Assembly: GCA_963844965.1 (NCBI GenBank)
Contig: CAWJQC010000007.1
Location: forward strand, 256,001 to 320,000
DNA: 64,000 nt
From: an uncultured bacterium
Lineage (GTDB): Bacteria > Patescibacteriota > Minisyncoccia > UBA6257 > 2-01-FULL-56-20
Reading direction: 5' to 3'
The notes under the pieces were generated by a model. The model was not told the DNA's origin. It saw nothing but the letters and a program-made list of their open reading frames with translations, and made no database searches. Below, piece by piece: positions 4,316 through 56,095 of the stretch; position 1 is the stretch's first letter, and every line of letters starts with the position of its first letter. Made by a program: the position numbers and the translations under genes.

Positions 4316-4403
4316 GCCGGAATTTCGCAGCCACATTTTTCTATGCTAAAAAAGATTTTAAAATCCAGGATAGTCAGCTCTATTTTTTTGCTGGATCCTG
4401 CTT

Positions 4404-4685
4404 TTGGTTCTGGGCGGAACGATCTGGGTGTATTTCGCCCTGCGTCATATCGCGCCGCCGCTGATTCTTCATTTCAACAACCTCGCCGGGATTAACCAGA
4501 CCGGGAATTTGGCGGATTTATTGGAGATCGGTGCCACCGGCATTGTTTTCGTGCTCGTGAACTTTTTTATAGCGTTGGAGCTGGAGAATAGGGACGCGTT
4601 CGGCGGCAAGCTTCTGGCCGCGGCGACCCTATTCCTCGCGATTTTGATTTTCATTGGCTTTGCCGCTATAATTTCTGCAAATTAG
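4404..4685 (+). CDS. Small hydrophobic membrane protein, hypothetical
   Basis: 93-aa ORF with two or three TM-like segments. Confidence 0.35.
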
Positions 4686-4699
4686 TATCGATGCTAATA
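4684..4699. repeat. Left 16-bp inverted repeat flanking the GxxExxY gene
   Basis: agtatcgatgctaata; its reverse complement tattagcatcgatac(c) lies at 5160..5175. Confidence 0.7.
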
Positions 4700-4704
4700 T
4701 ACGA

Positions 4705-5112
4705 ATGAGTACTAATGATACGAATAACCGAAACAGGAAACTTATTTATCCGGAATTATCATATACGATTGTCGGCATTTGCTTTGAAGTTCATAATCAG
4801 CTCGGGAGATTTGAGAGGGAAAAACAATACGGGGATTTGACAGAAAAGAAGTTAAAAGAGTCCGGTATTTCATACGAGCGCGAACGCGAGATTTTGAAAA
4901 CGGGAAACCGGGTTGATTTTTTGATTGATGGTAAGATCATCTTAGAAGTCAAAGCAAGAAAACTTGTTTTAAAAGATGATTTTTATCAACTGCAGCGCTA
5001 TCTTCAGGCTGCTGGTAAAAAGCTCGGTTTGATAGTAAATTTTAGAAACCGCTATTTGAAACCAATCAGGATTATCCGCATTGATACTGACGCAAGGAAA
5101 AAATTTCAATAA
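4705..5112 (+). CDS. GxxExxY-family (PDDEXK_3) PD-(D/E)XK nuclease-fold protein
   Basis: The translation carries the family hallmarks ([44 protein letters not shown]); the gene is flanked by 16-bp inverted repeats. Confidence 0.6.
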
Positions 5113-5159
5113 CTTGCAAAAATTGTCATTATAGATTAGTATAATTAGCATCATTAGTA

Positions 5160-5175
5160 TATTAGCATCGATACC
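5160..5175. repeat. Right inverted repeat flanking the GxxExxY gene, preceded by tandem ATTAG(T/C)AT repeats
   Basis: tattagcatcgatacc; 15 of 16 positions match the reverse complement of 4684..4699. Confidence 0.7.
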
Positions 5176-5502
5176 ATGTCTAAATTTTCGATAATCGAGA
5201 CGGGAGGAAAACAATATAAAGTTTCCGCCGGTCAAAAAATTAAGGTGGAAAAACTGAACGCGGAGGCGGGCGATTCTTTTGTTTTTGACAAGGTTTTGCT
5301 TGTTGTGGATGGCGAAAAAGTTGAGATTGGCACGCCATATATCGCCGGCGCGAAAGTGGAAGCCAAAGTTTTGCGCCAAGCCCGCGAACGCAAGAAAATC
5401 GTTTTCAAATACCATTCCAAAACGAGATATAAAAAAGAAAAAAGGACACCGACAACATTTTACGGAGGTGTTAGTGGAGAAAATTTGATTTGTTATAATT
5501 AA
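5176..5502 (+). CDS. rplU: 50S ribosomal protein L21
   Basis: N-terminus FSIIETGGKQYKVSAGQKIKVEKL matches the L21 signature; 108 aa. Confidence 0.9.
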   Translation: MSKFSIIETGGKQYKVSAGQKIKVEKLNAEAGDSFVFDKVLLVVDGEKVEIGTPYIAGAKVEAKVLRQARERKKIVFKYHSKTRYKKEKRTPTTFYGGVSGENLICYN

Positions 5503-7894: not shown

Positions 7895-10288
7895 ATGGCC
7901 ATTTATCTCGTAATTTCATTTTCGATCGGCGCCGTCTTGGGCGTTTGCGTTTATTTTATAGGGAGATTTTTCGTCAGGCGCAGGTTATTTGAATCCCTGA
8001 ATTACGCGCTGTTTTTGGTCAAGCTCCCGCGGGAGGCGGTTCCCGAAAAAACCGAGAGTGCTGAAGGGCGTGATTTCAAAGTTCAACTCGCCCACTTTGA
8101 GCAGCTCTTGGGCGGTCTCCTGGCCATAAAGAAACCGGTTGTTTTTGAAGTGGCCGTTCCGCACCTCGGCGAGGAGATACATTTTTACATGTCGGTTCCG
8201 AAGTTTTCTGGCGAGACCGCTACGAAGCTGATCCAGGGTTTGTGGAGCGGCGCAAGCGTTGAGCTCGCGCCGGACGATTTTAATATATTTAACGTTAATG
8301 GTGCGGCTGCGGCGGCGTACTTGGAGCAAAAAGAAAGTTACGCCTTGCCGGTGAGAACTTACAGCGAACTGGGGATTGACTCTTTTGAATCCATCGTCGG
8401 CGCGTTTTCAAAGATAAAGGAAATAGGTGAAGGAGCCGCTTTGCAGTTGGTTTTCCGTCCGGCTCCCGCCAAGCTGAAGAGAAAAGTGCACGGTTACATA
8501 AACCTGCTCAAAAAGGGGGTGCCGCTCAAAAAAGTTCTGAATTACGAGTTTCCGGTTGGCATTTCGGATATCGGAGAGATATTCAATCCGAAGACGAAGG
8601 AGAAAATACAGGAAGAGAAAAGCGAACGCGTGATTGACGAAGAAGCCGTGAAAGCGCTCACGGCGAAGATCACGAAGCCGCTTTTTGAGGTCAACGTGCG
8701 GCTCGTCGCCTCGGCGCCGTCGGAATTCCAGGCGAAGGATATCCTGGACGGTATGACGGCTGGTTTCAGCCAGTTTGCCGCACCGCTCAGGAACAGTTTC
8801 AAGATTATAAGGGCGCGCAACCCTAAGGGTCTGATTCGCCAGTTTATTTTCCGAAATTTTGACGCCGGCAAGAAGATGGTGTTGTCAAGCGAAGAAATCG
8901 CGAGCATTTATCATTTGCCAATCTCTTCCACCGAGACGCCGAAAATAAAATGGCTGAAGTCAAGGGAGGCGCCGCCGCCGCCGAATCTGCCCGCGACAGG
9001 CGTTCTCGTGGGCGAGAGCGTTTTTCGTGGTCAGAGAAAACCCATTTATATCACGGACGCGGATCGCAGACAGCACGTGTATATTATCGGTCAGACCGGC
9101 ACGGGCAAAACGACCTTGATCGGCGACATGGTGCTTGAAGATATCAAAAGCGGCAAAGGAGTCGCGATAATTGACCCGCACGGCGATCTGGTCGCGAACG
9201 CCCTGAGCTTCGTTCCCAAGGAGCGCATTGACGACTTGATTTATTTCAATACGGGAGATTTAGAACGTCCGCTCGGTTTGAATATGATTGACTACAATTT
9301 CAACCGCCCGGAAGAAAAGACGTTCATTGTGAACGAGATGCAGGGCATTTTCAACAGGTTGTTCGTCGCCGAGACCATGGGGCCGATGTTTGAACAGTAC
9401 ATGAGGAACGCTCTCCTGCTTCTCATGGAAGATATGCCTAACGAGCCGGCGACCCTGATAGAAGTGCCGCGGGTTTTTACGGACACAGAGTACCGCATGC
9501 GCAAGCTTGAAAGGATCCAGAACCCGGTGGTCGTTGACTTCTGGGAAAAAGAAGCGGTAAAAGCCGGCGGCGAAGCGTCATTGGCGAACATGACGCCCTA
9601 CATCACCTCCAAGTTCAACAATTTTATCGCCAACGACTATGTCCGCCCGATTATCGGGCAGGCGAAGTCGGCGTTCAACTTCAGGCAAGCGATGGACGAA
9701 GGAAAAATTTTGCTCATAAACCTGTCAAAAGGAAAGATAGGGGATATCAACGCCGGACTTCTCGGCATGATATTCACGGGAAAACTTTTGATGGCTGCTC
9801 TTTCGCGCGTGGACGTGCCGGATATTTCTAAACGCCGCGACTTTTATCTTTATATAGACGAGTTCCAGAACTTCACGACCGATTCCATTTCCACGATCCT
9901 CGCCGAAGCGCGGAAGTACCGTCTGAATTTGACTATGGCCCACCAGTTCATCGCCCAGCTTACGGAGAAAATACGCGATTCCGTTTTCGGCAACGTCGGT
10001 TCACAGCTCGTCTTCCGCGTTGGCGCGCAGGACGCGGAATTTCTCGTCAAGCAGTTTGAACCGACGTTCAATCAGAACGATCTGTCAAATATAGACAACC
10101 TGAACGCCTACGCGAAGATTCTCATAAACGGCATGACCTCAAAGCCGTTCAATTTGAAAATTCTGGGCACTTCCTGGAACCACGGCGACCGCGAACTCGC
10201 GGAGAAGCTTAAAGAGTATTCGCGCACGAAGTACGGCATGGACCGGCACGTAATAGAAGAGGAAATTTACAGAAGGTTGAGAGAATAA
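7895..10288 (+). CDS. Type IV coupling protein-like (VirD4/TraD/TraG family, DUF87/HerA-type) membrane ATPase
   Basis: N-terminal TM segment; Walker A GQTGTGKT; IDPHGD; Walker B-like LYIDEFQNF; AEARKYRLNLTMAHQ region typical of T4CP ATPases. Confidence 0.55.
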   Translation: MAIYLVISFSIGAVLGVCVYFIGRFFVRRRLFESLNYALFLVKLPREAVPEKTESAEGRDFKVQLAHFEQLLGGLLAIKKPVVFEVAVPHLGEEIHFYMSVPKFSGETATKLIQGLWSGASVELAPDDFNIFNVNGAAAAAYLEQKESYALPVRTYSELGIDSFESIVGAFSKIKEIGEGAALQLVFRPAPAKLKRKVHGYINLLKKGVPLKKVLNYEFPVGISDIGEIFNPKTKEKIQEEKSERVIDEEAVKALTAKITKPLFEVNVRLVASAPSEFQAKDILDGMTAGFSQFAAPLRNSFKIIRARNPKGLIRQFIFRNFDAGKKMVLSSEEIASIYHLPISSTETPKIKWLKSREAPPPPNLPATGVLVGESVFRGQRKPIYITDADRRQHVYIIGQTGTGKTTLIGDMVLEDIKSGKGVAIIDPHGDLVANALSFVPKERIDDLIYFNTGDLERPLGLNMIDYNFNRPEEKTFIVNEMQGIFNRLFVAETMGPMFEQYMRNALLLLMEDMPNEPATLIEVPRVFTDTEYRMRKLERIQNPVVVDFWEKEAVKAGGEASLANMTPYITSKFNNFIANDYVRPIIGQAKSAFNFRQAMDEGKILLINLSKGKIGDINAGLLGMIFTGKLLMAALSRVDVPDISKRRDFYLYIDEFQNFTTDSISTILAEARKYRLNLTMAHQFIAQLTEKIRDSVFGNVGSQLVFRVGAQDAEFLVKQFEPTFNQNDLSNIDNLNAYAKILINGMTSKPFNLKILGTSWNHGDRELAEKLKEYSRTKYGMDRHVIEEEIYRRLRE

Positions 10289-33606: not shown

Positions 33607-33729
33607 TTTGCTATTTTGTCTGAAAAATAGGCCCTGACTCAAAGTCGAGGTTTTTATTTGTTGTCGGCGGGACATTTTGGATTTTTCCAGTAGTAAATGC
33701 TAAACTAAATCTACAACTTAATATGCCTA

Positions 33730-33906
33730 AACCGCCGAAATTTCGGTAACATGGCGTAAAAATCCCATCCCTGATACTAAGCTCCTCGCTTAGCTACTCA
33801 GGGATGGGTCGCGTCTCGAAAGAGGCGTGGGTAACCGAAAGGTTGCCATGCTAGCGGGGAGCTTCGTGTTTTCCGTTAGCGGCATAGATTAAAACCCATC
33901 CCTGCT
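33730..33906 (+). promoter_or_regulatory. Highly structured 5' leader upstream of the DNA methyltransferase gene
   Basis: Nested hairpins (cccatccctga...tcagggatggg; GAAA-looped stems cgtctcgaaagaggcg and ggtaaccgaaaggttgcc); a second cccatccctg copy overlaps the start codon region. Confidence 0.4.
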
Positions 33907-37477: not shown

Positions 37478-37550
37478 GGGCGTTTAGCTCAGTGGTAGAG
37501 CGTTCGCTTCACATGCGAAAGGCCGCTGGTCCGATCCCAGCAACGCCCAC
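37478..37550 (+). tRNA. tRNA-Val (anticodon CAC)
   Basis: Cloverleaf folded by hand: acceptor GGGCGTT/AACGCCC, D stem GCTC/GAGC, anticodon stem TTCGC/GCGAA with loop TTCACAT, T stem GCTGG/CCAGC with TCCGATC loop, discriminator A; CCA not encoded. Confidence 0.8.
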
Positions 37551-44156: not shown

Positions 44157-44228
44157 GGCGCATTCGTCTAGTGGCCAGGACAGGTGGTTCTCATCCACCA
44201 AACAGGGGTTCGATTCCCCTATGCGCTA
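44157..44228 (+). tRNA. tRNA-Glu (anticodon CUC)
   Basis: Hand fold: acceptor GGCGCAT/ATGCGCT (G1-U72 wobble), D stem GTCT/GGAC, anticodon stem GGTGG/CCACC with loop TTCTCAT, T stem AGGGG/CCCCT with TTCGATT loop; the island starts immediately after it. Confidence 0.7.
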
Positions 44229-55841: not shown

Positions 55842-56095
55842 AAGATGAAGGGACGTCAGGAACCCTCAAAAAATATTGTCAAACTGGCTCCAAACGTGAT
55901 ACCTTTTAGGTAATTGAATATCAGATAGATCGCCTAAACCACGCATTTTGCATGGCATGGCATTACGCAGAATCTCCCTTCCAGATACCAAACGCCACGT
56001 TTGGCGACTTCTGGAAGGGAGTCACTCCGAAAGGGGTGGGGCCGCAAGGCCCAAGCCAGCGTGGCGTTTTGTGTTCTCTATTTTAAAACAAACCC

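Follow-up and report, generated by a model that had tools for sequence, protein, structure and literature searches.

The stretch of DNA analysed here, referred to as the window, comprises the 64,000 nucleotides from position 256,001 to 320,000 of contig CAWJQC010000007.1 (assembly GCA_963844965.1), belonging to an uncultured bacterium of the Patescibacteriota. At 4685-5174 it carries a single GxxExxY (PDDEXK_3) nuclease gene enclosed by terminal inverted repeats (TIRs), and this cassette is probably a full-length copy of a small palindromic selfish element whose family is widespread in Patescibacteria, the Candidate Phyla Radiation (CPR). It is very probable that the element belongs to a mobile or formerly mobile palindromic family, and the chances are slightly better than even that the GxxExxY nuclease drives its spread. 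An earlier interpretation, made by a model from the letters and the open reading frames (ORFs) of the DNA (the sequence-only reading), had proposed a small selfish element or a homing-type insertion. The selfish cassette is supported by the evidence presented below, while strict homing to one site does not fit, as many sites are occupied.

The element is built from the following parts.

4685-5174, forward strand: whole element (490 bp), consisting of the left arm, the GxxExxY ORF, a 22-nt spacer and the right arm.
4685-4725, forward strand: left terminal inverted repeat, an outer GTAT (4 nt) followed by the 37-nt arm CGATGCTAATATACGAATGAGTACTAATGATACGAAT, which is four ATRCKAAT octamers.
4705-5112, forward strand: GxxExxY / PDDEXK_3 gene, 135 amino acids, whose N-terminus MSTNDTN comes from the left arm.
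5135-5174, forward strand: right terminal inverted repeat, composed of four ATTAG(T/C)AT units that close with GCATCG, and of the outer ATAC.

The 16-bp flanking inverted repeats of the sequence-only reading are real: by direct reading, agtatcgatgctaata (4684-4699) and tattagcatcgatacc (5160-5175) are complementary at 15 of 16 bases. Their true extent is longer. A repeat search returned two blocks, 4685-4708 with 5151-5174 (24 nt, 96%) and 4710-4725 with 5144-5159 (16 nt, 88%), and if one 1-nt indel is allowed, the left side of the inverted repeat (4685-4725) measures about 41 nt and its right side (5135-5174) 40 nt. The four tandem ATTAG(T/C)AT units previously reported on the right flank (5135-5142, 5144-5151, 5153-5160 and 5162-5169) are present and constitute the right arm itself, and the left arm holds at 4691-4725 the mirror-image units ATGCTAAT, ATACGAAT, GTACTAAT and ATACGAAT. 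The claim that the repeats bracket the ORF exactly has to be corrected, since the left arm covers the start codon (ATG 4705, arm position 17) and codons 1-7, and the right arm begins 22 nt past the stop codon. The left arm fits CGATRCYAATATACKAATKNATRCTAATKATACKAAT, the consensus of the family as built from 74 elements, and the outer arm positions -4 to -1 are likewise conserved family-wide. The guanine-plus-cytosine (GC) content of the element is about 0.37-0.39, compared with 0.495 for the window. Within the window, exact matches of the 15-mer GTATCGATGCTAATA fall on the two arms only, as do clusters of the heptamer motif, and with up to three mismatches the 15-mer has five matches against 1.3 expected, a number reached in 2 of 100 shuffles. 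The repeat is not a product of chance, since it recurs around homologous ORFs at unrelated loci.

The identification of the 135-amino-acid ORF as GxxExxY (PDDEXK_3) was borne out by profile matches above the curated cutoffs, with PF13366 at 70.1 bits (cutoff 22, E 2.8e-19) and TIGR04256 at 68.7 bits (cutoff 35, E 5.5e-19). This is the only ORF of the element, and the Pfam and NCBIfam searches returned no other match on it, nor any DDE, HUH or serine/tyrosine recombinase class. In an alignment of 27 homologues the catalytic residues D71 (4915-4917), E81 (4945-4947) and K83 (4951-4953) are invariant, and the conserved N-terminus MHTNDTN is the translated repeat ATGCATACTAATGATACGAAT. Homologues recovered by a protein search number over 1,000; of the top 120, nearly all have 130-140 amino acids and 60-88% identity, and those with a named source are labelled Patescibacteria/CPR. 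Compared with the corresponding ORF of a close relative (L001), the ratio of non-synonymous to synonymous substitution rates (dN/dS) is 0.089, with a dS of 0.53; judging from these sequences, the ORF appears to be functional and under purifying selection, with its D..ExK motif kept. An AlphaFold2 model (predicted local distance difference test score, pLDDT, 83) has a compact alpha-beta nuclease core, and its best Foldseek matches in the PDB were Cas4 SSO0001, a lambda-exonuclease-like enzyme, the tRNA-splicing endonucleases (EndA) and Hjc, with probabilities of about 0.9-1.0, template modelling (TM) scores of about 0.4-0.5 and E-values of 1.6e-3 or more (all above 1e-3). On the strength of the model these appear to be generic PD-(D/E)XK relatives rather than close solved homologues, and a search of the PDB by sequence for a solved homologue found none.

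The sequence-only reading had described GxxExxY proteins as widespread and functionally uncharacterised, which agrees with what was found: a profile of this CPR subfamily reaches 3,333 50%-identity clusters at E <= 0.001, with members in many phyla, and the function of PDDEXK_3 is given as 'Unknown' in the census of PD-(D/E)XK proteins by Steczkiewicz et al. 2012 (PMC3424549). Many of the cluster representatives (P0127-P0176) are 250-650 amino acids long and carry the GxxExxY domain at one end or mid-protein; they may be read-through or gene-caller fusions with tightly abutting neighbours. As to a defence system, PADLOC gave only weak Cas4/HEC matches (E >= 8e-4) that fit the shared fold alone. 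A viral origin was rejected: IMG/VR held two TIR-pattern matches only (one inside an unrelated coding gene, the other a lone 18-mer that follows a stop codon), a tblastn search of 50,697 phage records was empty, and PHROGs matched an unknown-function family only.

The central evidence for a selfish element comes from other loci of Patescibacteria, where homologues 64-70% identical to the protein of the window are enclosed by the same arms at unrelated junctions.

L002: junction between T2SSE (pilB) and T2SSF (pilC).
L012: junction between DUF2229 and BcrAD, between two intein-containing genes.
L022: junction between DnaB and RecR.
L229: junction between a response regulator (Response_reg) and T2SSE.
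L230: junction between a methyltransferase and a dTDP-sugar isomerase.

At all five loci the GxxExxY gene lies on the same strand as both of its neighbours. The unit begins 0-4 nt past the upstream stop codon, which in L012 falls inside the arm, and it ends 1-6 nt ahead of the downstream ATG where the junction was read (L002, L012, L022 and L230). The right arm is conserved in L001 and, at other loci, in L002, L012, L022 and L230. Overall, the repeat family bounds homologous ORFs at no fewer than six other unrelated operon junctions, or at least seven with that of the window. The search for further copies of the 16-bp repeat, which had been suggested as a check, gave a divided answer: none was found elsewhere in the window, and the same family was found at these six or more Patescibacteria junctions. 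More divergent Patescibacteria paralogues, with 35-41% identity, have different repeat units.

Some of these loci carry additional inserts. In L012 (199-6680) one operon contains two LAGLIDADG-type inteins and two GxxExxY cassettes, which are 35% identical and have different repeat units, and this operon is a hotspot of selfish inserts. In L229 single-gene cassettes of 23S_rRNA_IVP (PF05635, a four-helix bundle) are located at 9127-9489 and 363-569 beside the GxxExxY cassette, in an operon ordered HisKA, IVP, response regulator, GxxExxY and T2SSE; short-unit repeats of different sequence adjoin the IVP cassettes, which may form another family of cassettes living in the same manner. In L230 (9940-9984) an extra solo left arm stands in tandem directly upstream of the left arm of the full element.

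The coding form is accompanied by a larger population of short palindromes. A scan of JGI metagenomes with the first 18 nt of the arm found at least 120 loci, and pairing of plus- and minus-strand matches resulted in 74 non-redundant elements. Among the matches listed, about 90% of these 74 are ORF-less and 66-140 bp long, the commonest length being exactly 74 bp, that is, two 37-nt arms with no loop, and only about five are full length (435-487 bp); in 38 of the 52 cases that could be scored, the genes on either side of the miniature run in the same direction, the miniature being typically 2-8 nt past the upstream stop codon and often 4-10 nt before the next ATG. Miniatures also adjoin full elements on the same contigs (L002 2809-2905; L230 6757-6836). 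Identical or 98-99% identical miniatures were found with unrelated flanks in the pairs L197/L219, L145/L202 and L125/L138, and two such copies lie within one 1.4-kb contig (L116). These near-identical copies at unrelated loci are the best evidence for recent movement. Conservation of the arms reaches four bases outward (AANK), beyond which the flanks are random. The loops, compared as possible internal deletions of the coding form, are heterogeneous in sequence and only occasionally resemble the ends of the ORF. The ORF-less palindromes of 74-110 bp would be non-autonomous relatives of the coding form, comparable to REPINs or to miniature inverted-repeat transposable elements (MITEs).

Variants of the miniatures were also observed. 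In L183 (about 1150-1175), L209 (about 537-552), L119 and L229 (about 9925-9965), one arm contains a small GC-rich hairpin (CCTGCCT...AGGCAGG or CCCGCC...GGCGGG), and diverged miniatures with GC-rich loops occur in GC-rich contigs, often within other GC-rich hairpins (L131, L157, L175, L143, L171, L194 and L220). Considering these GC-rich diverged versions, the miniature family may extend beyond Patescibacteria.

The insertion site of the window was compared with that of related genomes, with reference to two flanking genes.

4343-4685, forward strand: small membrane-protein gene upstream of the element, with its TAG at 4683-4685; an intact orthologue of 113 amino acids lies at L001 2003-2344 (tblastn synteny).
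5176 to about 5488-5502, forward strand: rplU (L21), PF00829 / TIGR00061, compared with L001 and L231.

The TAG of the membrane gene overlaps the first base of the repeat, and the ATG of rplU at 5176 is one base past the right arm. The cassette therefore lies where it had been placed, between these two genes, with the rplU start directly after a repeat that ends at 5174. The two closest relatives (88% and 79% amino acid identity) have the same order of GalT-like gene, membrane gene, GxxExxY and rplU, and the arms are conserved in L001, the 88% relative and the one of the two for which the DNA was read. A survey of this site, based on one genome per species carrying the GalT-like neighbour protein followed by tblastn, identified three genomes (L029, L030 and L031) which keep the order GalT, membrane gene and rplU without the GxxExxY ORF. 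In L029 the junction holds an ORF-less palindrome of about 85 nt from the same repeat family (GCGATGCGAAT...ATTCGTATATTGGCATC), and in L030 (4423-4517) a different, unrelated palindrome of about 90 nt (CTAGAATTTAGGAG...CTCCTAGATTCTAA), which suggests that several palindromic element families use such junctions. In L031 a 25-nt AT-rich spacer without any palindrome represents a truly empty site. The search for empty sites proposed with the sequence-only reading was thus productive: the site is full in the window and its two relatives, reduced to a miniature in L029, taken by another palindrome in L030 and empty in L031. A gene lacking its repeats together with an invariable presence of the element, the pattern named beforehand as counter-evidence, was not what this comparison found.

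These comparisons bear on the reading of the repeats as a local regulatory palindrome, such as an operator, attenuator or leader of rplU or a terminator of the membrane gene, or as a chance repeat, with the ORF being an ordinary host gene. The right arm does abut the rplU ATG, and a weak promoter-like match overlaps that arm. Nevertheless, the same arms occur at junctions unrelated to rplU, and in L031 rplU follows the membrane gene after 25 nt with no palindrome. The Rfam gathering scan of the window gave LOOT and tRNA matches only, with no L21-leader and no rRNA match, no T-tract follows the stem at the element, and the exact 15-mer is confined to the two arms in the window. A regulatory or fortuitous origin is accordingly extremely improbable.

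The divergence of the element differs from that of its surroundings. Compared with L001, the element as a block has 87-89% nucleotide identity and the left flank 69-71%; in a sliding comparison, identity is about 67% in the membrane gene, steps up to 85-95% over the element and the first 75 nt or so of rplU, and then falls to 70-80%. The dS values of the GalT-like and membrane genes are saturated (>3), and that of rplU is 0.87. This step in identity fits a replacement or re-acquisition of the element after the split of the hosts, possibly with co-conversion of the adjacent flank, and is suggestive only.

Several observations weigh against a selfish element that moves by itself. The element is a single copy in the 64-kb window, with no further copies or ORF-less miniatures elsewhere in it. 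Near-identical ORF-bearing copies at different sites, which would mark recent movement of the autonomous form, were not seen, and no target-site duplication or fixed insertion point was detected at about 70 junctions. The tight spacing to stop and start codons could stem in part from survivorship in highly compact genomes and not from targeting, and AT-biased codons, structural constraint and the conserved N-terminus of L21 could partly account for the low divergence of the element. Moreover, to our knowledge, no enzymology exists for any GxxExxY protein.

Part of this evidence would suit a domesticated system of the REPIN/RAYT kind (Bertels & Rainey 2011, PMC3116915, PMC3337134), in which the gene is immobile and vertically inherited, services or replicates the miniatures or benefits the host, and the repeats are its cognate sites. 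Both systems combine a small nuclease or transposase gene of about 0.4-0.5 kb and cognate inverted repeats with many dispersed, imperfect, hairpin-forming intergenic doublets of about 70-110 bp that lack the gene; in both, the repeat type is tied to the protein subfamily, and the gene is largely vertical and present in few copies per genome. Here the gene is single in 64 kb, it keeps its synteny across three related genomes, purifying selection acts on it, and each 90% protein cluster examined has one context only. Among the matches listed, the miniatures far outnumber the ORF-bearing copies, and the repeat unit changes with protein subfamily and phylum, as reported for RAYTs and REPINs (PMC3337134). 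On the other hand, homologues 65-75% identical with the same arms sit at many junctions in different lineages, which argues that the ORF-bearing unit has moved repeatedly; the ORF is inside the palindrome and not beside it, the window has the gene and no miniatures, and the element is less diverged than its flanks, which runs counter to simple long-term vertical descent. The two systems differ further in the enzyme (PD-(D/E)XK nuclease here, HUH/Y1 IS200-like transposase there), in the start codon, which here lies within an arm, in the arms (four octamers against one short REP palindrome), in the distribution of the ORF-bearing unit over many sites between lineages, and in the hosts (Patescibacteria against Proteobacteria). 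A REPIN/RAYT-like domesticated system is consequently considered unlikely.

The two arms are not simple complements of each other. In 33 elements with both arms in the canonical 37-nt register, 26 arm positions are nearly invariant and five are dimorphic, namely 7 (C/T) and 15, 19, 29 and 34 (G/T), and at each of these the bases of the two arms are opposite in about 85-90% of the elements. The same base is found on both arms in 3, 3, 4, 3 and 5 of the 33, compared with 12.7-16.5 expected (Fisher p 2e-6 to 3e-3), and for positions 7 and 15 the rule also holds across all 74 pairs. The phases of the five positions are unlinked, which led to the rejection of two fixed arm types and of a flip-flop inversion of whole arms as explanations. 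The arm differences amount to an obligate imperfect palindrome, and with the arms differing at five positions a folded strand would never have more than 8 uninterrupted base pairs. In the copy of the window the arms differ at three of the five dimorphic positions (4689-4725 / 5135-5170). When elements are oriented by their flanking genes, C7 (21:7) and G19 (12:4), the latter creating the ATG, prevail in the upstream arm. A possible explanation is selection against long perfect palindromes, for example through avoidance of SbcCD or RNase III, at the only positions that a binding protein would leave free; another is a mechanism requiring asymmetric half-sites.

The arms are also relevant to an RNA-level element resembling the intervening sequences (IVSs) of 23S rRNA, in which the arm stem would be processed, e.g. 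by RNase III, or would couple translation, and the ORF would be a passenger. The minimum-free-energy fold of the RNA from 4675 to 5185 is indeed closed by an arm-arm stem (-124 kcal/mol, z = -3.9), whose base would bring the upstream stop codon and the downstream ATG within a few nucleotides of each other. The architecture matches that of the IVS of Coxiella burnetii, which is 428 nt long, has a 28-bp terminal stem and tandem heptamers just before the start of its ORF, and is excised by RNase III (PMC4990558). The IVSs of Coxiella (PMC4990558) and Leptospira are, like the present element, selfish inserts of about 430-490 nt with complementary termini, in which a single small ORF lies in the loop of the stem, short tandem repeats precede or overlap its start, and ORF-less short versions exist; furthermore, 23S_rRNA_IVP cassettes share an operon with a GxxExxY cassette in L229. 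Against this, the arms are systematically non-complementary at five positions, and the pair formed on the sense strand at position 7 is mostly C.A (21:7) and not U.G, from which it follows that stability of an RNA helix has not been selected. Selection for an RNA helix is disfavoured by the dimorphic positions, which show no preference for sense-strand wobble pairs in elements oriented by their flanking genes. The strong purifying selection and the invariant catalytic residues indicate that the ORF is no decaying passenger, no Rfam match was obtained for the element or for six miniature copies, and the spread to new DNA sites would be left unexplained. The element is inserted between protein-coding genes and not in helix 25 or 45 of 23S rRNA, and it encodes a GxxExxY protein under purifying selection, in contrast to S23p (PF05635), the Coxiella ORF having been reported as decaying. 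An RNA-level element of this type is therefore very improbable.

For the palindromic selfish element, a mechanism can be proposed. The nuclease would recognise the octamer arrays, four units per arm spaced about one helical turn apart, and would break DNA, upon which the element might move as a whole unit in the manner of a transposon. Alternatively, the ORF might be copied into ORF-less palindromes by repair, the arms providing the homology, in a homing-like manner. Movement as a whole unit would explain why the miniatures share the ends of the element, and homing-like copying would account for the low divergence of the element as well as for the L029 miniature at the insertion site of the window. 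Expression would depend on the host operon: no obvious promoter or Shine-Dalgarno sequence of the element was found, the ORF starts about 20 nt past the upstream stop codon, and the downstream ATG follows soon after the stop codon of the ORF. Read-through transcription and translation by re-initiation would probably produce the protein, with the inserted ORF relaying ribosomes to rplU, so that polarity would be minimal and insertion cheap. The predicted stem of the transcript may add an effect at the RNA level.

No description of this element was found in the searchable literature. The nearest analogues are the REPIN/RAYT systems and the ORF-bearing IVSs of 23S rRNA, but the element lacks one or more of the defining traits of every related system and is a member of none. 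MITEs with an autonomous partner (Correia/NEMIS, ERIC and derivatives of insertion sequences) resemble it in their TIRs, in the abundance of short non-coding derivatives sharing the same ends, in their intergenic location and in the occurrence of identical copies at unrelated loci. Unlike them, it has no DDE, HUH, serine or tyrosine transposase and no detected target-site duplication, its insertions are strongly biased to the first few nucleotides after a stop codon within operons, and its coding form always runs in the direction of the host genes. Free-standing and PD-(D/E)XK homing endonuclease genes (phage T4 seg/mob; I-Ssp6803I in PMC3424549) are likewise small nuclease genes wedged between conserved host genes, varying in presence and absence at the same site, with an insert less diverged than its flanks, and a PD-(D/E)XK protein of about 135-150 amino acids can cut a pseudo-palindromic site as a specific endonuclease. 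However, they have one cognate site and no TIRs, whereas the present family has conserved TIRs at seven or more unrelated junctions; a homing step could apply only to the entry of the ORF into ORF-less palindromes. An integron cassette is unlikely, as neither an attC-like single site at one end nor a nearby integrase is present in the contexts seen.

GxxExxY cassettes with a similar layout exist in other phyla. Distant GxxExxY genes (25-37% identity) were searched by tblastn in annotated plasmid and chromid records, and five were inspected.

Bacteroides finegoldii: between radA and a gene for a FAD-dependent protein; 30-nt inverted repeat, 90%, with CAGAGGAC-type units.
Bernardetia: between ade and mannose-1-P guanylyltransferase; 28-nt inverted repeat of CACAGAGA units.
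Sphingomonas: between fabD and fabG, inside the conserved fab operon; 25-nt inverted repeat, 92%, with CGCGAAG units.
Treponema: between a hypothetical protein and a Fic family protein; 16-nt inverted repeat.
Fusobacteria plasmid L234, 1430-1925: between an ATP-binding protein and a metal-dependent hydrolase; direct repeat of about 27 nt (CAGATTTAATCCGTGTACCTAT...), not an inverted repeat.

All five genes are co-oriented with both neighbours. The inverted-repeat architecture, with differing units, is present in Bacteroidota, Alphaproteobacteria and Spirochaetota, and the AATCCGTGT core of the direct repeat of the Fusobacteria plasmid recurs in the inverted repeat of the Treponema copy. From these sequences, the combination of nuclease gene, short-unit arrays and operon junction looks ancestral to the protein family, with unit sequences that appear to co-vary with the protein. 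A more far-reaching and distinctly tentative extension is that GxxExxY proteins as a whole might serve as dedicated nucleases for a hitherto undescribed class of hairpin elements that spans phyla and includes operon-junction cassettes, REPIN-like miniatures and possibly ORF-bearing rRNA IVSs. Such elements would be moved by a minimal PD-(D/E)XK enzyme acting on octamer arrays, through a mechanism unlike those of known transposon families, and the arm differences would be part of it, for example as mismatches in a folded DNA intermediate or as asymmetric half-sites. According to the description of TIGR04256, some members of that family are encoded in rRNA intervening sequences.

Regarding the remainder of the window, each of the two neighbours of the element has a frameshift in a homopolymer run. 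At a T-run the membrane gene passes from the frame of ATG 4343 into that of 4404-4685, and rplU has one extra A at 5431, which places its conserved C-terminus ...GHRQHFTEVLVEKI in another frame. Both genes are intact in L001 and in L231, a short-read assembly of the same organism, and the frameshifts are probably assembly errors. LOOT RNA (RF03000) matches above the gathering score are located at 33724-33847 and 55931-56052, and tRNAs at 37478-37549 and 44157-44228.

The evidence ties the GxxExxY family to a testable role, that of the nuclease of a TIR-bounded cassette of operon junctions with REPIN- or MITE-like offspring. The opposite bases at the dimorphic positions, a kind of 'heterozygosity' of the arms, are a clean statistical signal. 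If the proposed role is true, annotation would benefit, since odd N-termini (MHTNDTN...) and read-through fusions would be recognised as by-products of the repeat, and the known kinds of prokaryotic mobile DNA would come to include a PD-(D/E)XK-only element. The proposed role would also account for a common class of intergenic palindromes in the otherwise extremely compact genomes of Patescibacteria, and would offer a possible link to the origin of rRNA intervening sequences.

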